64,000 bases of DNA from a bacterium. Lineage in GTDB: Bacteria > UBA8248 > JACPRG01 > G963555815. Below the pieces are notes generated by a model that was not told where the DNA came from, did no database searches, and saw only the letters and a program-made list of their open reading frames with translations. The stretch is from positions 608,001 to 672,000 of the forward strand of contig CBDHDG010000004.1 of assembly GCA_965261595.1 (NCBI GenBank). Direction: 5' to 3'. Each line of letters starts with the position of its first letter. Positions within the stretch are counted from its first letter, which is position 1. The position numbers were made by a program, and so were the translations under genes. Of the stretch, positions 11,261 through 28,366 are shown piece by piece.

Positions 11261-11935
11261 CTACGGGACGGTCACGGGCTCGACGCAGCGGGGGTCGTCG
11301 TTCGAGGGCTTGTTGACCAGGGTGCTCACGGGGTGGACCGTCATCCCCTCCGGAGGACAGGGGCCGAGCGCGACGGTCTCGCCCGCCAGCCACGGTTCGA
11401 ACGCCTCCGGGGGCAGGATCACCGGCATCCGGTCGTGGACCCAGGCCACCGCCTCGTTGGTCGCGGTCGTCAGAATGGCGCAGGTCTCGATGGCCTCGCC
11501 CGGTCCCTTGAGCGCGCTCTCCTCCGGGACGGACCAGCGCTCCCACAGCCCGGCCAAGGCGAACAGCGCGCGCCCCTTCAGTCCGATCAGCCACGGTTGC
11601 CTGACCGCCCCCTGCCGCGTCCATTCATAGAACCCGTCGGCCGGAATGAGGCAGCGACGGTTCCGGTACGCGTCGCGGAACGCCGGCTTCGTGCCGACCG
11701 TCTCGGCGCGGGCGTTGATCAGCTTGTAGCCGATGTTGGCGTCCCTGGCCCAGCCGGGGATCAGACCCCAGCGGAGCATCGAGAGCCGGCGACCGTCCTT
11801 GCCCGAACGGACGACCGCGACGTCCTGACCCGGCGCGACGTTGTAGCGGGGCTTGAGGTTCACAGGCGGGCCGCTCAGGTCCAGAAAGGCCTGAACTTCC
11901 GGCCATGTACAACGTTGGGTGAAGCGTCCGCACAT
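11261..11935 (-). CDS. SOS response-associated peptidase (SRAP/YedK/HMCES family)
   Basis: N-terminal MCGRF, RYNVAPGQ, WGLIP, INARAET, GFYEW, HDRMPVIL. Confidence 0.95.
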   Translation of the reverse strand: MCGRFTQRCTWPEVQAFLDLSGPPVNLKPRYNVAPGQDVAVVRSGKDGRRLSMLRWGLIPGWARDANIGYKLINARAETVGTKPAFRDAYRNRRCLIPADGFYEWTRQGAVRQPWLIGLKGRALFALAGLWERWSVPEESALKGPGEAIETCAILTTATNEAVAWVHDRMPVILPPEAFEPWLAGETVALGPCPPEGMTVHPVSTLVNKPSNDDPRCVEPVTVP

Positions 11936-12194
11936 GGGGCGAGCCTATCAGTCTTTGCGGGGCCCGGCCAGATGGCTCCATATTCGGTTCGAACACGATA
12001 TGGGGATCATGTAAGGAGGAACACCGGCCGGTTCCGAGGCGCAGGCTCGTGGTGAAAGCGGGTCGAACCCGCGCGGACAGAGAGTCTAGCCAGGGAAGTG
12101 CCAAGACCGACGGTGACGGCGTGACGGACGCCACGGACGGTGCGAAGGCGGCAAGGTATTTGGCGTATGGGCGGTCAGCCATGGACGGGCACGC

Positions 12195-12863
12195 TTACCT
12201 TCGTGACCGCCGCCACCCCGCGGCCTCGGCCTGCGCCTCGGTGCAGAACCACCGCTCGCCCTTTGACGTGTCGATGCGGGTCCGGTCATAGGACCGGCCT
12301 CCCGGCACATGATAGATGCGCGAGCCCGTGCGGCTGATGTTCCCTTTGATGCGACACTCGCCGGCGCCGGTGCGAACCGCCCCCTGAAGACGCTTCCCCC
12401 GCCGCCAATCCCACGGGGGCACGAACGTCCCTCGCCAGAGCCCGCGACGATCGGCCTTCGCGGCCCTCTCCTGAGGAACGTAGTCGGTCGAGTATTTACG
12501 GTACGCGAGCGCCCAGCCCTGGGAGACCATCCACGCATTGACATCCTCGCCGGCCACTCGACACACCGCCACGATGTGCCCGTAGCGGTCGCGGTCACGT
12601 TCCTCGCATACGACCGGCCGTCCGGCGAGGCGCTTACGGAGCGCGATCGCGGCGGCCCTTCCGCAACTCCAGGGCTTGCCGTCAGACCGGCAGGTCTGAG
12701 CGCTCTCCGGCGCGTCGATGCCGTGGAGCCGGACCCGGTGACCGGAGACCTTGAGGCTGTCCCCATCCGTCACCGAGGCCGTGCCCGAGAGCTGGGCATA
12801 GGCTGCGGGGCAGAAGGCAGCGGCCAGGAGTCCGATGATGCAGGCTACGGCGAGATGTATCAT
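12195..12863 (-). CDS. Secreted thermonuclease (SNase) family protein
   Basis: Signal peptide; VTDGDSL, RLHGIDAPE, DRYG; C-terminal IKGNIS..IYHVPG..WFCTEAQAEAAGWR domain. Confidence 0.9.
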   Translation of the reverse strand: MIHLAVACIIGLLAAAFCPAAYAQLSGTASVTDGDSLKVSGHRVRLHGIDAPESAQTCRSDGKPWSCGRAAAIALRKRLAGRPVVCEERDRDRYGHIVAVCRVAGEDVNAWMVSQGWALAYRKYSTDYVPQERAAKADRRGLWRGTFVPPWDWRRGKRLQGAVRTGAGECRIKGNISRTGSRIYHVPGGRSYDRTRIDTSKGERWFCTEAQAEAAGWRRSRR

Positions 12864-13765: not shown

Positions 13766-14743
13766 ATGAAAGGAATTAGAAAAAGAACCGTCAATAAAGT
13801 TGCAGACATGATCTGCGGCAATGAAAGCGATTACTTCGTGTATAGAAGCAGCACTTATTTGTCGGAGTTTTTCGAAGACTGTGACATGGAGCAGTATGTT
13901 CACGACGGCTCGACCCGGAAATGGTGGGTCGCAGGCGTCCTCGACAAGATCCTGAAAGAACCGTCTGACAATCCTGCTCTACCTAGGGCGGGTTTTCAGA
14001 CCGTAATTCAAGTCCTGATGGATCGCGCGGACCACACTCAGGACGATCCTGAACGTGAGGCTGCGCTGGCGGAACTCAACGTGACGCTCGCACGCGAGGG
14101 GCTGGAAGCATTCTACGCCGAGGACAACTGCTGCTATATACGCAACACCAAGACCGGCGAGGAGGCGCGGCCCGGCCCGGTCGTAGCGCGTGCTCTCTCC
14201 CAGGACGAAATTGATCGCCGCCGACGCCTCGAGTCGTATATTGATGCGGCGAGCGAGGACGACATCACCGAAAAGGTAGTCTTTCCACTTTTTCAAACCC
14301 TCCGATTTCAGAGGATTACAATCGCCAGCCACAAGGGCAAGGCGATGGAGTTCGGCAAGGACCTATGGATGAAGTATTGTCTCCCCACCGGGCACTGGCT
14401 CTACTTTGGTCTGCAAGTGAAGCGCGGAAAGATAGATGCGACGGCGAAAACCAAGAATGAGAACGTCGCAACGATTCACCGCCAGCTCACCATGATGCTC
14501 GGACATGAGATATTTGATCCAGACATCAACAAAAAACGGCTTGTAGATCATGCACTCATCGTAGCCGGTGGTGAAATCACCAAGCAGGCCAAGCATTGGC
14601 TCGGAGAAAGGCTGGACGCCTCTCAGAGGAGCCAGATCCTGTTCACTGACCGGGCTGACATTCTTCACTTGTTCGTCGTCCACAACGTTCCAATGCCGGA
14701 CGAAGAACGCAGGGAGGAATTCGATGAAGACATTCCATTTTGA
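13766..14743 (+). CDS. Putative defence nuclease: helical N-terminal domain, PD-(D/E/Q)xK-like domain and SSB-like acidic tail
   Basis: SEDDITEKVVFPLF...EFGKDL...YFGLQVKRG resembles Mrr-type nucleases; ends EEFDEDIPF; lower GC than flanks. Confidence 0.6.
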   Translation: MKGIRKRTVNKVADMICGNESDYFVYRSSTYLSEFFEDCDMEQYVHDGSTRKWWVAGVLDKILKEPSDNPALPRAGFQTVIQVLMDRADHTQDDPEREAALAELNVTLAREGLEAFYAEDNCCYIRNTKTGEEARPGPVVARALSQDEIDRRRRLESYIDAASEDDITEKVVFPLFQTLRFQRITIASHKGKAMEFGKDLWMKYCLPTGHWLYFGLQVKRGKIDATAKTKNENVATIHRQLTMMLGHEIFDPDINKKRLVDHALIVAGGEITKQAKHWLGERLDASQRSQILFTDRADILHLFVVHNVPMPDEERREEFDEDIPF

Positions 14744-16835: not shown

Positions 16836-17084
16836 ACGCGTTTGCTCTGGCTCGGACGATGCACCGGGAGGCGTCTTCACCAGACGTCTCTATTGATTAT
16901 AACCATGGCTGCGACAGGCATACGCCGGGTTTTGTCCGGAAGCATGCCTACAGCCTTCGCCCAGAATATCGGCCGCGATGCTCCCGGCGATCCGCTCCGC
17001 GGCCTCCTGCACCGAGTCCCGCGCCAAGTGGGCATAGCGCGCCGTCGTCTCGACTTGGTTGTGGCCCAACAGCTTGCTGATCAT

Positions 17085-18615
17085 GGGGCTGTTGAAAAAG
17101 CCGATTTCGAGACCGGTCGCATGCAGGATCACGTGGCGGCGGCCGCCCGCAAGTCTGTTCGGGGTGCGTAGGCGTGATGGACATGCAGCGGCTCTTGTCC
17201 GGCAACGCGGGCCGTCCAATCGGCCAATAGGATGGCAACAACGGCGGCCCCAAGCCGCTTGAGATTGATCGCCGCGGCCGTCAGGTAGGCCTGGATCTTC
17301 ATGTTGTCGAGACCGCGCCGGACCGCGCGCCCGAGGCCGTGCCAGAGCTTCGCCTCGCCGTGGAAGCCTTCCGAACGCCAGAGGTGACGTTGATACTGCC
17401 GCCGATCCTCCTCGCTCCATCGCGCATGCCGGCGCCGCGCCCTGAGCAGCGCCGGATAGTCATGCGGGAGCACCACCTCCTTGTTGATGCGCGTCTTCGG
17501 CAGACACTCGCCTTTGAGCGGACAGCGCGCGCAGTCGCTGGTCCTGGAATGGAAGAAGCGTCCGCGCCCGGTGACCCGCAATGGACGCAGGAGCTTTCCC
17601 CGCGGGCACTTCACGATGTTGTTCCGAGCGTCGTAGCGGAAGCGACGCAAGGGAACGCCGCTCCTAGACGGCTCTTTCCGCGCCGGGATGAGCGGATCGA
17701 TGCTGCGACGCTCAAGCCCGCCATAGACCTGGGCGTAGGCATAACCGGCATCGGCCGTCACCGTCGCGATTTCGCGTCCGGCGATCTCCCGAACCTCATC
17801 CACCTGCGCCTCGATCGTCTCGCGCTCGCTCACCGCTCCCGTCGTTACAGAAACGTCCAGTACCACGCCTCTCACATCATCGACCGCCGTGTGCTGCTTG
17901 TAGCACGGCTTAAGCCGCCGGTTGCACGCCGAGGTCGCCATGCTCGCGTCCGCATCGGTGCGGCTCACCTTCCTGGACTTACCGCGCCGACCGCCTCTGT
18001 TCTTCTCCCCTTCAACTTCCTCCTCCCCGCAGTTCTCCGTCATCACCTCATCCACATGCCGCTCGACCAAGCTCTCCCAGCTGACATCGGCGCGGACCAG
18101 CGAGGCATCGATGTGCACAACCTCGGCCGTAGCGACCTTCGCCTCCAGGCAGGCCCTCACCGTGCGCTGGAAAATCTCCCGGAACCGCCTCTCGCCCCAG
18201 CGCTGGCGGATACGGGTCAGGCTCGAATGGTCGGGCAGACGCTCGTGCAAGCCATAGCCGATGAACCACCGGATCGCGATGTTCACCTGCGCTTCCCGCA
18301 TCAGCCTGCGGTCGTGCACGATGCCCAGCAGCAGGCCGGCGAGCATCAACCGCACCGCCACCTCCGGATCGATACCGGGCCGACCGTTGTCCGGGCAATA
18401 GCAGTCCGCCACTTCCTCACGTAGCCAGCCCAGGTCGAGAACACGGTCCACACGCGCCAGTACGTGATCCTCGGGCACCAGCTGCTCAAGCGAGCCGGTG
18501 ATGAATAACGCCATCTGATCCCGCCCCTTCCGTCCCAACATCTCGTGGCCTCCCTGTCTCGAGCACTCAATATCGATACACGGAATCACAGAACCAGGAC
18601 TTTTTCAACAGCTCC
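17085..18615 (-). mobile_element. IS1182-family insertion sequence
   Basis: IRs GGGGCTGTTGAAAAAG / GGAGCTGTTGAAAAAG; 5-bp target duplication ATCAT (17080-17084, 18616-18620). Confidence 0.92.
17129..18541 (-). CDS. IS1182 family transposase
   Basis: GRPGIDPE, PDHSSLTRIR, HIDAS, TADAGY, CARCPLKGEC, SEGFHGEAK. Confidence 0.93.
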   Translation of the reverse strand: MLGRKGRDQMALFITGSLEQLVPEDHVLARVDRVLDLGWLREEVADCYCPDNGRPGIDPEVAVRLMLAGLLLGIVHDRRLMREAQVNIAIRWFIGYGLHERLPDHSSLTRIRQRWGERRFREIFQRTVRACLEAKVATAEVVHIDASLVRADVSWESLVERHVDEVMTENCGEEEVEGEKNRGGRRGKSRKVSRTDADASMATSACNRRLKPCYKQHTAVDDVRGVVLDVSVTTGAVSERETIEAQVDEVREIAGREIATVTADAGYAYAQVYGGLERRSIDPLIPARKEPSRSGVPLRRFRYDARNNIVKCPRGKLLRPLRVTGRGRFFHSRTSDCARCPLKGECLPKTRINKEVVLPHDYPALLRARRRHARWSEEDRRQYQRHLWRSEGFHGEAKLWHGLGRAVRRGLDNMKIQAYLTAAAINLKRLGAAVVAILLADWTARVAGQEPLHVHHAYAPRTDLRAAAAT

Positions 18616-19316
18616 ATCATCGGCAGACTCTCCCCCAACGCCAAGGCCCTAGACGCGAATGAATGACGGAGGTCGTGAATCGTCGCGGAAGCAAGGGTAG
18701 GAGACCCGGTTGCAGCCCGTTCCTGGTTGATGGCACTCGAAACTGTTGTGTTTCTTGATGCGCCCGCAGATGCCGCGAACCTCGCCCGGAATCTGCTTGA
18801 TGTCTGAGCGATTCCGCGCCAAGCTGCCAACGCCGCGCCGCACACATCGCGATTGCCATCACGAACGGCGTGACGTCCGCGACGAGGGTGCGGTTCATGC
18901 CTTCTACGCCTCCTATGGAAGAGCAGATTGCGGAGCTGGTTGAATAGTTCCTGCGGGAGAACGGTATTGTTCCGGAATGGAGATGAACCGCCTGGAACGG
19001 GATCGCCCGCGGCATTGGTTCGCGGCAACGGACGGCGCACCGGCAACGCGAGGGCGTTGGTCAACGCCATCATTGCGGCCCTCGCCGGCGGGGGGGGGCC
19101 GGGTTCGGGGCGGCTCCGGGCCGGAGTCCGAACGGCTACGATTCGCGCGGCCGATGGTCTCGAATCGGCGGAAACGGCGGATCGGCGGCGGCGCACGGCG
19201 TCAGGAGCGCGCCTCGATATGGCACGGCGCACCGTGTTGAAATAGTGTTGAACTTTACAGGAAGTCGTCAGTCAGGAAAGATAGAGAAACAGATATTAAC
19301 CTATAATATCAATGCG

Positions 19317-20117
19317 TTATACAATGGCCGTAAGCCGTGGGAAAAAGCGATCTATAAATTCCCAGCGCAACGTCAGGATCTCGCTCTTCCGGCATCCGGT
19401 CAGCAGCAGCAGCCGGAGCGCCGCAATCACCGGCGGCCACACCGAGCCGTCCGTTTCCGCGTCCCTCAACACACGGCCCAGCCGCCGGAACTCCTCCGGC
19501 GTCAGAAACCGCTCGCACGACCTCTCCTTGTAGCGGCGCACCGACCGGCACGGGTTCCGGCCGGGCGGCAGTCTTTCCCAGGCTTCCGCCAACGAGAACA
19601 TTCTCGACAGAACCTTGACCGTCCGGTTGGCCATTGCAGGCGTGTCACGAAGCCGGTGATGCAGCGCGGAAATCTCCCTTCGTCCTACCTCGTTGATTGA
19701 CATCGCGCCCAGGGTGGGAAGAATGTGCTTGCCGAGCACGCACCGGTACGTTGCAACGGTGCTCGGCTTGCAATGCACCTTGACATGGGTGCGCAGGAAC
19801 CGTTCGGACAGTTCGGCCAACGTGAGCTCCGGCTCGGGCGGCGCGGGCACGGGGTCCTCCCCCCGCTTGATGCGGTCGATGACCACGGCCGCTCGCTTCC
19901 TCGCCTCCTCAGTCGACATGTCCCCATGCCGTCCGAGGGTCACTCGCTTCGGTCCGGCCGGCCCCCGGGACTGCACTACGTAGACCTTGCGACCCGTGGC
20001 ATGGACACGCACCCCGAAGCCCGCCAGGTCCCGGTCCCAGAAGACGCCATCCTTGGCATCGACGGTGAGTGCATCCACGGTGCGTTTGGTGATCCTGAGC
20101 TCGCTCCTTCTGGGCAT
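19317..20117 (-). pseudogene. Tyrosine integrase with Arm-type DNA-binding N-terminus, C-terminally truncated
   Basis: WDRDLAGFGVRV, TLGRHG, TGCRKSEILTLRWE, then unrelated AT-rich sequence. Confidence 0.85.
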
Positions 20118-20327
20118 GGTCGCTCCTTGCCTTTGTTCTATGGTGATTCGGTATGCAATTCCGTAATCAAATAGAACACACGCTGCATCAAATCGGTGCG
20201 TATTTGAGCACAAGCGTGGCGGGAATGCAAGGGGCAAGAGACGGGACAATGAAAAATAAATTCAATGTTTACAGCATCTTATCTCAGCACAGCGTTCTCA
20301 GTCGCACCATTGGCGAGGTGAGATATT

Positions 20328-24820: not shown

Positions 24821-26032
24821 TTAAGACAATTGCAAATCAGGGAAATGTATTCGCACCTGGTTATGGCCGATCAGTTGGTTGAACATTCTATAGTTGTCGG
24901 TATCCCTACGTAAGCGTCCTGCCACGATTGCGGGATGTATCCTGAGCTCATGTGCCAGCTCAACGATTTTACTTGGTGTACGCATTCGAAATGCGTCGCT
25001 TCGTCTCCACATTGATCTTGGGATGCAGGTTTCAAGGGCGAGTCTGGTGGCTTCTTTCTCTCTTCGGTCATTCTCTTGGACTGAATCCAGGTCATCGACA
25101 AACGACTCTTCTGAGTCTTTCAAATGCAGGATCACGTGCGCCAATTCATGCAACAAGGTGAACCAGAAATTATCGATTCGGTCATACCGGAGAGTGAGAC
25201 CGATAACCGGCCTGCCTTCACCCGTAAGCATTGCGCCGCCATCAAGATGGGTCCTTGGCAAATGCGACACAATGACTAAGGCTACGCCTTTTCCCGCGAG
25301 ATACTCCTGCGCGAGCAAGGGGCCCCTCGCCAATTCGCTCAAACAACAAATATCCTGCATGGACTCCTTTGTGAGCGTTCCCGGTTTATATTCTTGAAGA
25401 TGTTCCAGGTTCTTCGATACCATGATCACACGGGCTATCCATGCGAGAAGGGCATAATCATCCATACCGACCTTTGAACTCTTATAAATCGTACGGCGAC
25501 AAAATACTTGAGCGGGGATTCCCCTTTCCACTTTGTCGAAAAATTGTTGAACCAGCTCGGATGGGCGCTTGCGAAGACAATCGGCAGTCGCTGTTATCCA
25601 CCCCATTTTCACCATTTCACGAACCGGGAATCGTTCCCACTCGATTTCTAAACCGTTTAGAGGAGTCGATTTCGGTCTTTGCATCAAGACCTCCAGCGAA
25701 ATTCCCAATCCTTCATGGACGGCTTGAATCATCGGCAACGATAGAGGCCGTTTCCCGGAAAGGACCTCTGACACCCTGCCCTTACTCCCAATGTAGGGAA
25801 CAAGATCCTTCTGTCTCAATCCCTGCTCCTCCATCCGAAATCGAATGGCGTCAATGGCATTGGGTTTCTCAAAAGGGATGTGCTCCTTTTCGTAGAGTTC
25901 GACAAGCGTCGCCAAAAGCTCCAAGCGGTCCGCCTCCGGGGTCATTGCATCCGGATCATGGGCAACCAGGCGTTCCACTTCCCCCAGGAACATTTCATAG
26001 TCTTCTCTTGTCTTGATTACTCGGGGTTCCAT
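24821..26032 (-). CDS. higA: HigA-like HTH antitoxin fused to an ImmA/IrrE metallopeptidase domain
   Basis: FRMEEQGLRQKDL..VSEVLSGKRPLS HTH; RIDNFWFTLLHELAH HExxH. Confidence 0.88.
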   Translation of the reverse strand: MEPRVIKTREDYEMFLGEVERLVAHDPDAMTPEADRLELLATLVELYEKEHIPFEKPNAIDAIRFRMEEQGLRQKDLVPYIGSKGRVSEVLSGKRPLSLPMIQAVHEGLGISLEVLMQRPKSTPLNGLEIEWERFPVREMVKMGWITATADCLRKRPSELVQQFFDKVERGIPAQVFCRRTIYKSSKVGMDDYALLAWIARVIMVSKNLEHLQEYKPGTLTKESMQDICCLSELARGPLLAQEYLAGKGVALVIVSHLPRTHLDGGAMLTGEGRPVIGLTLRYDRIDNFWFTLLHELAHVILHLKDSEESFVDDLDSVQENDRREKEATRLALETCIPRSMWRRSDAFRMRTPSKIVELAHELRIHPAIVAGRLRRDTDNYRMFNQLIGHNQVRIHFPDLQLS

Positions 26033-26045
26033 GTCACCCTCCTTC

Positions 26046-26327
26046 TCAAGACCACTTTTGGTGCTCCGCATGTGTTCCAACCCGTTTCACGAAGACAATC
26101 CCCGTTTTGAATGCGACTTGAATCTCCAAGCGATATCGATTGCCTTTCACGTTGAAAATGACGAAGTTATTGGCCAGGAAACTTGCGGCTCTATAGCGAT
26201 CCTTGATGTCCTGATCCCGTTTCCAGTCAGCGGCCTCCACATCGGCAATCCAATTCTCTATCCACGACCTCGCGTCTGCATGTTTCCTTGCAAAAGTGTC
26301 AAGCTTTTCCCGTCCGACGAGTCGCAT
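26046..26327 (-). CDS. higB: HigB family toxin (mRNA interferase)
   Basis: VIFNVKGNRYRL, VGTHAEH; upstream of the antitoxin. Confidence 0.9.
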   Translation of the reverse strand: MRLVGREKLDTFARKHADARSWIENWIADVEAADWKRDQDIKDRYRAASFLANNFVIFNVKGNRYRLEIQVAFKTGIVFVKRVGTHAEHQKWS

Positions 26328-26334
26328 GAGGTCA

Positions 26335-26363
26335 AATATAGATGGTTCCCAGAAAGATGTCAA
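26335..26363 (-). promoter_or_regulatory. sigma70 promoter of higBA, probably giving a leaderless mRNA
   Basis: Minus-strand TTGACA-17 bp-TATATT with 7 nt between the -10 box and the ATG; no SD. Confidence 0.6.
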
Positions 26364-26635
26364 TTACATAGTTTCATATATTGGAACTTTTTCCATCTGG
26401 TGCGTCCGCCCCTTCACTTCATTCAAGCCGCTTTCGACCAATTTATTGGTAATGAGAGAGCAATGGCGGTTTATGGGAAGCGGTGTTCTGCTCGTCTGGC
26501 CGGATGGACACAGGCCCTGATCGGGGCTATTCTGGCTCTCGGTCTCGGGCGGCGGCGGCGGCGGCAAAACATTTATGAATGGTGTAACCCCTTTGATTTC
26601 ATTGGTGTTCCTCGCCCCGTTCCGGGTAATTATCC

Positions 26636-26664
26636 TTGACAGGGCGTTCGGTTCGGGCTAAACT
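26636..26664 (+). promoter_or_regulatory. Probable sigma70 promoter of the rplU operon
   Basis: TTGACA-17 bp-TAAACT. Confidence 0.6.
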
Positions 26665-26758
26665 CTCTAGCTTTGAGGGAGGGTGTTGTCGATTTTCGCC
26701 GACTGCAGGCGCGGACCGCTTGTTTTGGTGATTCAGGTCTTTCAAGGAGTCTGTTATC

Positions 26759-27067
26759 GTGTATGCAGTGATTGACTGCGGCGGGCATCAGTATCGCGTT
26801 GCCGAGGGCGAGATTATCCGTTTGCAGAAGATGGATGGAGAGGTGGGGGAGGCGGTGACCTTCTCGAAGCTGGCGGCGGTGGGCGCGGGCGAAGGGCTGG
26901 CCGTCGACGGCCTTGCGGGCGCTCACGTGAACGGGGTCATCGTGGAGCAGGGCCGCGCCCGTAAGATCATCGTCTTCAAGAAAAAGCGGCGGAAAAATTA
27001 CCGCCGGAAAAATGGCCACAGACAATCCTTCACCGCGGTGCGGATCACCGGTATCGCCACTTCCTGA
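26759..27067 (+). CDS. rplU: 50S ribosomal protein L21
   Basis: MYAVI..GGHQYRV, KIIVFKKKRRKNYRRKNGHRQ. Confidence 0.98.
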   Translation: MYAVIDCGGHQYRVAEGEIIRLQKMDGEVGEAVTFSKLAAVGAGEGLAVDGLAGAHVNGVIVEQGRARKIIVFKKKRRKNYRRKNGHRQSFTAVRITGIATS

Positions 27068-27079
27068 GAGGAAACGGAC

Positions 27080-27349
27080 ATGGCGCACAAGAAGGCCGGC
27101 GGCAGCTCCCAAAACGGACGGGACAGCAGGGGAAAGAGCCTCGGCATTAAACGATACGGCGGCCAGATGGTGGGCGCCGGAACGATCATCGTGCGGCAAC
27201 GGGGATCGTCCTATCACGCGGGCGACGGCGTCGGAACGGGCGGCGACTTCACCCTGTATGCCCAGAGAGACGGCCGGGTTGAGTTCCAGACCCGGCGCGG
27301 CGGCCGAAAATTCATCCACGTCATCGAGGTTCCATCGGAATCGAGCTGA
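27080..27349 (+). CDS. rpmA: 50S ribosomal protein L27
   Basis: [23 protein letters not shown]. Confidence 0.99.
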
Positions 27350-27361
27350 CCCCTCCAAAAA

Positions 27362-28366
27362 ATGTTTATTGACTCGGCGCGGATCACCGCACAAGGCGGA
27401 GACGGCGGCCGCGGATGCGTCAGCTTCCGCCGCGAAAAGTACGTCTCTCGCGGCGGTCCGAACGGCGGAGACGGCGGCGACGGCGGCGATGTCGTCCTCA
27501 AAGCGACTTCCTCCACCACCACCCTCCTTGAATTTCGGTACAGAAGCATTGTACTGGCCAAAAGAGGCGGACACGGCCGGGGTAAAGACCAGCACGGCCG
27601 AAGAGGCGAGGACACCCGGTTCGAGGTGCCCGCCGGAACGGTGGTGACCGACGAGGACACGGGCGAGGTCCTGGCCGATTTGGCCGAGGAGGGCCAGGAA
27701 GCCGTCGTCGCGCGCGGAGGCCTCGGGGGAAAGGGAAACGCCCGGTTCAAATCCTCGACCCACCGCTCCCCCCGATTCGCCCAGTCCGGCCTGCCGGGCG
27801 AGTCCAAGCCCCTCCTCCTCGAGTTGCGTCTGCTGGCCGATGTGGGCATCATCGGCGCCCCCAACGCGGGCAAGTCCTCCCTGCTGGCCCGGATCTCCGA
27901 TTCCCGGCCGCGGATCGCCGATTACCCGTTCTCGACCCTCGAACCCGTCCTGGGCGTCGTCCACGTCGGGGATTACGAGTCTTTCGTGGCCGCGGACCTT
28001 CCCGGCCTCATCGAGGGCGCCCATCAAGGCAAAGGGCTCGGCTCGCAATTCCTTCAACACGTCCGCCGCACGCGGGTCCTGCTGCACGTTGTCGAGATGC
28101 ACCCGCCCGAAGGCGCGCCCGCGGACACGTTTCGCAGCGTCTCGGCTGAACTGACACAATATGACGAGTCCATCGCGGACAAACCCGTTCTCGTGGCCGC
28201 CAACAAGATCGACCTCCCCGGCGCCCGCGAGGCCCTGGCGGAATTCATGCGGGCCGCGGGCCTGAGCGAGGTCTATCCCATATCCGCGGCGACGGGTGAA
28301 GGAGTTTCCGCGCTGCTGCAAGCCGTGCGCGGGGTCCTTTCCCGGGAAGAAGCGCCCGTCTCATGA
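27362..28366 (+). CDS. obgE: GTPase Obg
   Basis: GGDGG..SFRREK, GAPNAGKSS, DLPG, NKID. Confidence 0.98.
   Translation: MFIDSARITAQGGDGGRGCVSFRREKYVSRGGPNGGDGGDGGDVVLKATSSTTTLLEFRYRSIVLAKRGGHGRGKDQHGRRGEDTRFEVPAGTVVTDEDTGEVLADLAEEGQEAVVARGGLGGKGNARFKSSTHRSPRFAQSGLPGESKPLLLELRLLADVGIIGAPNAGKSSLLARISDSRPRIADYPFSTLEPVLGVVHVGDYESFVAADLPGLIEGAHQGKGLGSQFLQHVRRTRVLLHVVEMHPPEGAPADTFRSVSAELTQYDESIADKPVLVAANKIDLPGAREALAEFMRAAGLSEVYPISAATGEGVSALLQAVRGVLSREEAPVS

Follow-up and report, generated by a model that had tools for sequence, protein, structure and literature searches.

A Mrr/MspJI-Type Nuclease Family with an SSB-Like C-Terminal Tail That Co-Varies with the SSB of Its Hosts

The window analyzed here is a 64,000-nucleotide stretch of contig CBDHDG010000004.1 (positions 608,001 to 672,000; assembly GCA_965261595.1) from a bacterium of the lineage UBA8248. 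One of its genes (Table 1) encodes a predicted nuclease, the last residues of which, EEFDEDIPF, resemble the C-terminal tip of SSB, the bacterial protein that binds single-stranded DNA. In relatives of this nuclease, the tail co-varies with the SSB tail of the host. The reading favored here, with a probability of roughly 55%, is that the protein is a solitary mobile defense nuclease whose tail docks into the pockets that bind the host SSB tail. The co-variation went beyond the predictions of an initial annotation, in which the gene had been described as a putative defense nuclease with an SSB tail mimic. All computational checks suggested in that annotation gave results in favor of its reading.

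Co-Variation of the Nuclease Tail with Host SSB

Genes for SSB (PF00436) were sought in the genome of the window and in those of the 80 loci collected for the family, with the exception of one locus, L054, the copy of which reads only 207 residues. Of the resulting 80 genomes, 77 gave an SSB, and none was found in G021, G109, and G113. In 70 genomes both proteins end in PF, and these genomes were compared. Seven genomes (G010, G033, G042, G044, G045, G048, and G052), in which either the nuclease or the SSB ends otherwise, were set aside, including three with a truncated or otherwise ended nuclease and an SSB ending in PF, as well as two in which the best SSB frame has no PF end.

The residue before PF (position -3) is the same in the nuclease and in the SSB of its own host in 49 of the 70 genomes (I/I in 32, L/L in 7, P/P in 8, and V/V in 2), compared with 26.8 ± 3.0 when the hosts were shuffled (maximum 41 in 100,000 shuffles). 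One of the L/L pairs comes from an unpublished genome (G046), and the count without this genome is 48 of 69. The mismatches, given as SSB/nuclease, are I/L (11), I/V (4), I/M (2), L/I (1), M/L (1), P/V (1), and V/L (1). Proline at position -3 of the nuclease was found in eight of the nine hosts with a PPF-type SSB, all belonging to Actinomycetota, and in none of the remaining 61 hosts. In one Actinomycetota host (L045), the SSB is of the IPF type, and the nuclease has M at this position.

The likeness extends upstream, as measured on the first 46 nuclease/SSB pairs. Positions -8 to -3 contain 131 identical residues in these pairs, compared with 81 ± 5.7 in shuffles (maximum 104). Within the 19 pairs in which both proteins end in IPF, 46 identical residues were found, compared with 33 ± 2.9 in shuffles, and this number was reached in 0 of 20,000 shuffles. 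In hosts belonging to the candidate phyla radiation, the SSBs end in IDLSEIPF or INPEDIPF and the nucleases in ISLDEIPF, INLDDIPF, or ISVDDIPF.

The same codon is used at 117 of the 223 identical residues, and the DNA following the stop codons is unrelated. Recent exchange of DNA with ssb is therefore excluded, and the match lies at the protein level. Gene conversion from ssb was rejected as a source of the tail on these grounds.

In the nuclease tree of the 70 rows, 21 cherries (independent sister pairs) were found, seven of them with identical host SSB tails. Among the remaining sister pairs, the SSB of the own host fits better in seven, that of the other host in one, and six are ties (one-sided sign test, p 0.035). 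As judged from these sequence comparisons, co-variation of the tail with host SSB is well supported, with effects of ancestry remaining in part, and it argues for real mimicry of the SSB tip.

This likeness can be read against what is reported for SSB itself. In two articles, the C-terminal tip of SSB (DDDIPF) is described as the docking site for many replication and repair partners (PMC5872125; PMC11253446). The co-variation also fits a possible, tentatively considered alternative, in which the nuclease tail serves as a decoy: phage or plasmid proteins adapted to seizing the SSB tail of the host, e.g., annealases as well as replication or recombination factors, would bind it. Their binding, rather than that of host partners, would release or assemble the nuclease, which would then cut DNA, so that the infection is aborted or the invader destroyed. 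To lure invader proteins adapted to the host, a bait has to track the host SSB, as this tail does. According to one report, the RecT and Red-beta annealases of phages recognize the seven C-terminal residues of the host SSB, and do so host-specifically (10.1101/2020.04.14.041095), and according to another, phage SSB-like proteins with DDIPF tips trigger several defense systems (10.64898/2026.10.27.754916); both findings favor a bait, as does the occurrence of the solitary gene in defense islands. Against it, no invader partner is known, the AlphaFold2 (AF2) model displays no autoinhibited state, the tail being unplaced and of low confidence, and the data presented here do not separate a bait from docking on host partners.

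The SSB-Like C-Terminal Tail

The family sample consists of 121 members, i.e., the query and its 120 best relatives. A PF end is present in 93 of these members and the end [DE][ILVM]PF in 68. Conservation of the tail, which had been named as a check in the initial annotation, extends down to 40% identity: full-length members at 40–44% identity still end in D-[DE]-[IV]-P-F. Distant relatives of the nuclease domain with SLFN_AlbA_2 or LRR N-termini carry no DIPF tail, and the tail and the N-terminal domain of the family therefore go together.

In the genome of the window, only 14 of the 38,248 frames of at least 80 amino acids end in [DE][DE][ILVMP]PF. Twelve of these are SSBs (one main SSB and eleven near-identical paralogues), one is the nuclease gene, and one is an unrelated frame of 469 amino acids. 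Thus, the terminal EEFDEDIPF is more than a chance occurrence. The tip of the nuclease matches that of the main SSB of the host (on contig C6), which ends in DDDIPF. The 469-amino-acid frame (C4:319181-320590, plus strand), located outside the window and ending in DEREEVPF, is the sole other non-SSB frame with an SSB-like tip. The main ssb gene is located at C6:553154-553639. The eleven extra SSB copies, about 168–171 amino acids in length, were found on five contigs (e.g., C4:36669-37175, C6:1020456-1020962, and C7:68459-68965); they end in IDDIPF, VDEIPF, or MDDIPF and look like parts of a multi-copy mobile element with its own ssb.

The linker preceding the tip contains a conserved N-V-P-[LM]-P, followed by a stretch of about 10–20 residues that is variable in sequence and length and often Pro-rich across the members. 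No Pfam match to the oligonucleotide/oligosaccharide-binding (OB) fold of SSB (PF00436) was found in the nuclease, the model of which consists of a helical domain and a nuclease domain. A beta-clamp-binding motif, which is led by Gln, was rejected as an identity for the tail, with no Gln-led motif in the tails and with co-variation being with SSB. Among proteins known to be SSB partners, RecO is encoded in the host genome, and a search of this genome for chi and the C-domain of ExoI found neither.

The tail is acidic, with an isoelectric point (pI) of about 4.1, the nuclease domain is basic (pI 9.2), and the SSB tail is able to bind the OB fold of SSB itself. Such properties would suit a tail that works in cis only, folding as a DNA mimic into the basic DNA-binding cleft of its own protein and keeping the enzyme off, its likeness to SSB being incidental. 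However, the exact [ILPV]-P-F end is not needed for inhibition in cis, which predicts neither the switch to PPF in hosts with PPF-type SSBs nor the fine match at positions -8 to -4, and this explanation is considered highly improbable. Binding in trans, to pockets that also bind the host SSB tip, best explains why the tail has been kept similar to this tip, and the match argues against a purely charge-based autoinhibition in cis.

Nuclease Domain

An AF2 model was built from an alignment of 45 sequences and consists of two domains (predicted local distance difference test, pLDDT, 85.3). The second domain, residues 144–315, was found by both VIA-align and Foldseek to have the alpha-beta-beta-beta-alpha-beta core fold of the Mrr/MspJI/FokI branch, in agreement with the Mrr-type PD-(D/E)xK nuclease proposed in the initial annotation. 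The best VIA-align matches are AspBHI (4oc8; Z 9.9, 136 residues aligned, root mean square deviation 3.8) and AF1548 (1y88; Z 9.9, 108 residues aligned, root mean square deviation 2.2), followed by MspJI (Z 8.8), LlaBIII (Z 8.7), FokI (Z 8.3), Avs4 (Z 7.3), and SduA (Z 6.5). Foldseek matches were found to AspBHI (E 1.7e-4) and MspJI (E 5.7e-4). Searches of PDB sequences with the protein gave no significant match.

The E...D...QxK arrangement that had been read from the strings SEDD (E164), EFGKDL (E195 and D199), and GLQVKRG (Q217 and K219) is present. All five residues are invariant in the 45-sequence alignment and kept in 121 of the 121 family members; in the AF2 model, the predicted catalytic residues are placed on the helix 164–178 and the strands 200–205 and 211–219. 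This invariance indicates that the enzyme is under selection as an active nuclease, and the sequence predicts catalysis by a PD-(D/E)xK active site of the Mrr/MspJI type.

For the window protein, a search at E up to 1 gave no match to the Pfam family Mrr_cat (PF04471; gathering score 21 bits). Among 17 distant relatives, three match this family, all below the threshold; the best is P0128 (18.4 bits, E 0.0025), and P0135 and P0212 are weaker. The nuclease is thus Mrr-type in kind, yet outside Mrr_cat by the Pfam criterion.

With the AspBHI and MspJI catalytic domains and the Mrr-like AF1548 as the closest structures, and with a solitary gene lacking a methyltransferase partner, the protein could simply be a modification-dependent restriction enzyme of type IV, of the kind that Mrr and MspJI represent. 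Its N-terminal domain would then read modified DNA, and the tail would be an accessory. This explanation is doubtful. It leaves the tail and its co-variation without explanation, and the N-terminal domain is helical and acidic: among the best 50 VIA-align rows for this domain, there is no SRA or winged-helix DNA reader, and no row reaches Z 5. In enzymes of the MspJI/AspBHI type, modified cytosine is flipped by an SRA-like domain at the N-terminus, and such a fold could still be missed in a list of this kind.

N-Terminal Domain

When modeled alone in AF2, the N-terminal domain, residues 1–140, was predicted with a pLDDT of 91.5 and consists of five helices and a hairpin, which agrees with the helical N-terminal half expected from the sequence. 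The domain is particular to this family and has a pI of 4.8 and a mean column identity of 62% across phyla. Its acidity and strong conservation make a protein a more likely ligand than DNA, and it is likely a regulatory or protein-binding module.

No Pfam family covers these residues, and neither a Foldseek search of the PDB (at E 0.001 or better) nor a search of BFVD gave a match. The best VIA-align score is Z 4.6, with many rows corresponding to CARD or death domains, including one bacterial death-like domain; helical bundles reach such scores by chance. Matches in the ESM Atlas reach 0.85 and belong to unnamed clusters, with AbiJ_NTD5 listed at 0.84. In a comparison with AbiJ N-terminal domains (PF18860 and PF18865), the AbiJ_NTD3 profile weakly matches 5 of 60 members (best E 0.018), and an hhalign comparison with one AbiJ_NTD3 protein (L145) gave a probability of 6.5%. 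This protein (L145:910-2304, minus strand, 464 amino acids) is the sole AbiJ_NTD3 protein found in the phylum of the window. Its C-terminus resembles a small endonuclease motif, giving a layout of an Abi-type N-terminal domain with a nuclease; the stretch of 64 columns aligned by hhalign to residues 72–136 of the window protein is non-significant.

In 19 of 60 members, the PADLOC Stk2 model is matched at its N-terminus (positions 4–69 of 500) by the first 65 or so residues, with a best E of 7.2e-6. In the window protein, residues 7–70 (13784-13975) correspond to these positions, with E 0.0038 for the whole protein and E 0.00085 for the domain alone. The matched region of the Stk2 model precedes its kinase domain. 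The two kinds of defense effector, Stk2-type proteins and this nuclease, may have a small N-terminal module in common. A genome search with the Stk2 model gave matches to the kinase domain only (profile positions 112–364) and none to the N-terminus, and a word-based search found no longer proteins carrying this N-terminal domain.

Distribution and Gene Neighborhoods

Homologues of the protein are numerous. A word-indexed search found 2,812 proteins at E up to 0.001, the best 120 of them with 54–88% identity, and an exhaustive search gave 792 clusters at 50% identity. Relatives were found in 544 of 185,579 species genomes belonging to many phyla. The family is carried by 47 plasmids, 25 of them conjugative, and by 191 of 5,426 complete Escherichia coli genomes (3.5%). 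No homologue was found in 50,697 phage GenBank records, and 19 loci were found among 2.9 million viral contigs. Named records annotate the protein as a hypothetical protein and, once, as a restriction endonuclease. The distribution is patchy, horizontally mobile, and of the island type.

Copies in E. coli provide examples of the context. One, on an IncI plasmid, is located among genes for VapBC, an Abi protein, a TIR protein, and an S-4TM effector. A chromosomal copy lies in a cryptic lambdoid prophage and adjoins an integrase fragment, and another belongs to an island that also contains an ATP-dependent nuclease/helicase pair as well as a methyltransferase-HNH pair.

In 79 loci, 149 directly flanking open reading frames (ORFs) were read, with some domains assigned by the general roles of their families. 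By raw count, 28 of these loci are flanked by a restriction-modification, defense, toxin-antitoxin, or mobile-element domain. In 20 of them, the domains are of the restriction or defense type: type ISP, type I HsdM/HsdR, MmeI, Shedu SduA_C, GmrSD_N, AAA_21, three reverse transcriptases, and TIR_2, as well as NACHT, nSTAND5, CHAT, caspase, PIN_12, SMEK, DUF6119, DUF3800, Zeta toxin, and ResIII. The eight others have only mobile-element or toxin-antitoxin domains, including integrases, transposases, MobA, ParD, and PFIN. Homologues are thus often located among defense and mobile genes, and the defense-island context that was to be checked according to the initial annotation was found. No conserved partner gene was found, the largest cluster of neighbors being present in 4 of the 79 loci; likewise, with no conserved adjacent gene in 79 loci, no toxin-antitoxin or other two-gene arrangement is seen. 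A RES-domain neighbor, as in the window, was rejected as a partner (0 of 80 loci).

Proposed Mechanism and Alternatives

From these comparisons, we infer tail binding, a role in defense, and activation by assembly. The tip would dock into the pockets of host SSB-interacting enzymes, or of phage or plasmid proteins that exploit host SSB, and the docked nuclease would thereby be positioned at intermediates of replication or recombination. Assembly on such a multivalent platform would then license cleavage of the invading DNA. In solved enzymes, FokI/MspJI-type catalytic domains act as dimers or tetramers, and assembly would be a natural switch because catalytic domains of this type cut in this way.

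Several observations weigh against this reading. At position -3, 21 of the 70 genomes have a mismatch, mostly with L, V, or M in the nuclease and I in the SSB. Related sequences in related hosts inflate the shuffle tests, so that co-variation is partly confounded by ancestry. A single clade for the eight PPF tails stays compatible with a tree made without the linker and tail (approximately unbiased test, p 0.555), and repeated origins of PPF are therefore not claimed. In an independent-pairs test, the pairs on supported branches were too few for significance, although the nuclease tail never moved in the opposite direction. Furthermore, 28 of the 121 members have no PF end yet keep the catalytic residues, which implies that the tail is not strictly required. 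SSB itself cannot recruit a protein with an SSB tail, and the docking reading gives no account of how such a protein would get to foreign DNA. No whole-protein match to any defense model of PADLOC-DB 2.0.0 was found, the only match being the partial one to the N-terminus of Stk2, and the counts of flanking domains lack a background control for enrichment.

The remaining observations of this kind concern neighbors with roles in DNA repair, which were found in seven loci: UvrA three times, a Y-family polymerase twice, a DnaE-type polymerase, and SRAP. In three of the 79 loci, the gene lies directly downstream of uvrA. In two of these, both alphaproteobacterial (L007:1281-8969 and L052:3020-8984), uvrA is directly followed by the nuclease gene, on the same strand, and the main ssb is located divergently upstream of uvrA; in the third (L043), a UvrA-like fragment lies upstream of the nuclease gene. 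This order could mean that the gene is transcribed together with one inducible by damage, or that the site is a hot spot for insertion. The other four loci have translesion or DNA-damage genes as flanks, encoding the Y-family (L037 and L059) and DnaE-type (L038) polymerases and SRAP (L067). A DNA-damage-tolerance neighborhood recurs in these four loci and in the window, with its SRAP and SNase genes.

Such contexts fit a role in DNA repair as well. In this main non-immune alternative, the protein would be a repair or replication nuclease carried by mobile elements. Its tail would bring it to the repair enzymes of the host where forks have stalled or gaps are present, and the element or the cell would profit. 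The host ssb gene in the same locus in L007 and L052, the SRAP gene near the nuclease gene in the window, and the unusually high conservation, above 50% identity across phyla, agree with it. However, the sporadic occurrence in species genomes and in E. coli, the carriage on plasmids and prophages, and the varying neighbors are atypical of a housekeeping repair factor, and restriction and abortive-infection neighbors outnumber repair neighbors. A repair function is therefore regarded as unlikely, and defense with tail docking remains the preferred reading.

Gene Coordinates and Setting in the Window

The ATG start of the gene is the position at which the N-termini of homologues align in the 45-sequence alignment, resulting in a protein of 325 amino acids. 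The guanine-plus-cytosine (GC) content is 0.532 for the gene, 0.54 for the island at 13–17 kb, and 0.624 for the window, so that the low-GC island noted initially is evident. This low-GC patch is part of a stretch at approximately 8.3–27 kb that looks like the remains of integrative elements. The stretch contains genes for a Mutator-family transposase, a tyrosine recombinase, SRAP and SNase, a transposase HTH fragment, a RES-domain protein, an insertion sequence (IS) transposase within a broken integrase, and an HTH protein with an M78 peptidase.

The RES-domain protein, encoded in the same low-GC patch as the nuclease, has a Cys-rich N-terminal extension, and no Xre-type antitoxin gene is evident alongside. 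The broken integrase gene, which is of the tyrosine type, appears to be split by the IS transposase into an Arm-DNA-binding/SAM part and two C-terminal-looking fragments. The gene with HTH_3 and Peptidase_M78 domains (ImmA/IrrE-type) is located in a second low-GC patch at 25–27 kb and adjoins two ORFs without Pfam matches.

Table 1. Features of the nuclease gene and of its surroundings, in positions of the window.
Feature	Coordinates	Strand	Basis or remark
Whole nuclease gene	13766..14743	+	ATG start, 325 codons and stop
Alternative in-frame TTG start	13757	+	ORF scan
N-terminal domain, residues 1-140, acidic, five helices and beta-hairpin	13766..14185	+	AF2 model
PD-(D/E)xK nuclease domain, Mrr/MspJI/FokI type, residues 144-315	14195..14710	+	VIA-align, Foldseek
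Span with predicted catalytic residues, including E195	14255..14422	+	Invariant in alignment; AF2 model positions
E164	14255-14257		
D199	14360-14362		
Q217	14414-14416		
K219	14420-14422		
Linker, residues 306-316	14681..14713	+	Alignment columns 401-417; pLDDT 55-58
SSB-like tip EEFDEDIPF, residues 317-325	14714..14740	+	Translation; family tails
SRAP and SNase genes	11261-12863	-	Just upstream of the island; SRAP two genes upstream of the nuclease gene
RES-domain gene, 354 aa	15259-16323	+	PF08808, E 1.4e-15
Tyrosine-integrase gene, apparently split	16890-20249	-	
IS transposase	17129-18589		DDE_Tnp_1
Integrase piece, Arm-DNA-binding/SAM	19317-20249		
Integrase pieces, C-terminal-looking	18567-19232 and 16890-17420		
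HTH_3 and Peptidase_M78 gene	24821-26080	-	ImmA/IrrE-type
Two ORFs adjoining the HTH_3/Peptidase_M78 gene	26013-26639 and 26630-28321		No Pfam matches

Relation to Known Systems and Implications

The nuclease domain has the same PD-(D/E)xK fold as Mrr/MspJI/AspBHI, AF1548, LlaBIII, the N-terminal nuclease of Avs4, and FokI (Z 7.3–9.9). Likeness to Mrr and MspJI includes E on a helix, D at the start of a strand, and QxK on the next strand, as well as the solitary gene without a methyltransferase; the D...QxK arrangement is presumably the Mrr/MspJI variant. The window protein differs from these enzymes in its sub-threshold relation to Mrr_cat, its acidic helical N-terminal domain, and its SSB-like tail, and we know of no such tail in Mrr/MspJI-type enzymes. 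Shedu SduA and Stk2-type proteins are similar in combining an N-terminal regulatory domain with a C-terminal PD-(D/E)xK domain and in being solitary and located in defense islands. Unlike in these systems, there is no whole-protein PADLOC match, and the kinase domain is absent from the window protein. To our knowledge, an SSB tail is not a feature of the SduA or Stk2 families.

Like that of SSB, the tail is located at the very end of the protein and has an acidic run before [ILPV]-P-F, preceded by a flexible linker; it also matches the SSB tip of the host. In contrast to SSB, the carrier is a nuclease without an OB fold, and its linker is short; the linker of SSB is much longer than 10–20 residues. 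Phage proteins with DIPF tips, e.g., 0087, an SSB-like protein ending in DDIPF (10.64898/2026.10.27.754916), likewise reuse the hub docking peptide; these are phage-encoded binders of single-stranded DNA or small adaptors, whereas the family described here is a nuclease of chromosomes, plasmids, and prophages.

In line with the initial description of the protein as an undescribed effector, searches of Pfam, NCBIfam, and PADLOC 2.0.0 found no family for it. Nor did the literature searched yield a description of a nuclease or defense protein with an SSB-type tail, although supplements or unsearched papers may hold one. The kind of nuclease is known; the combination of domains appears undescribed, and so, above all, does a nuclease with an SSB tip matched to that of its host.

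The family thus presents a hub docking peptide on a nuclease, matched to each host and widespread; if docking is true, this would be a new way to aim or trigger an immune effector. A more speculative possibility is that of a hub-mimic sensor, in which a co-evolving SSB-peptide bait is bound by phage or plasmid proteins that hijack SSB, e.g., annealases and replication factors, leading to multivalent assembly and switching on of the nuclease, i.e., one-gene, decoy-based effector-triggered immunity. If such a bait model were true, bacteria would have an instance of decoy-type immunity directed at proteins exploiting SSB, and the family could be relevant to the question of why the annealases of phages function in certain hosts but not in others. 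The presence of the family in E. coli makes these possibilities tractable, with a single gene, a nine-residue tail, and known binding partners.

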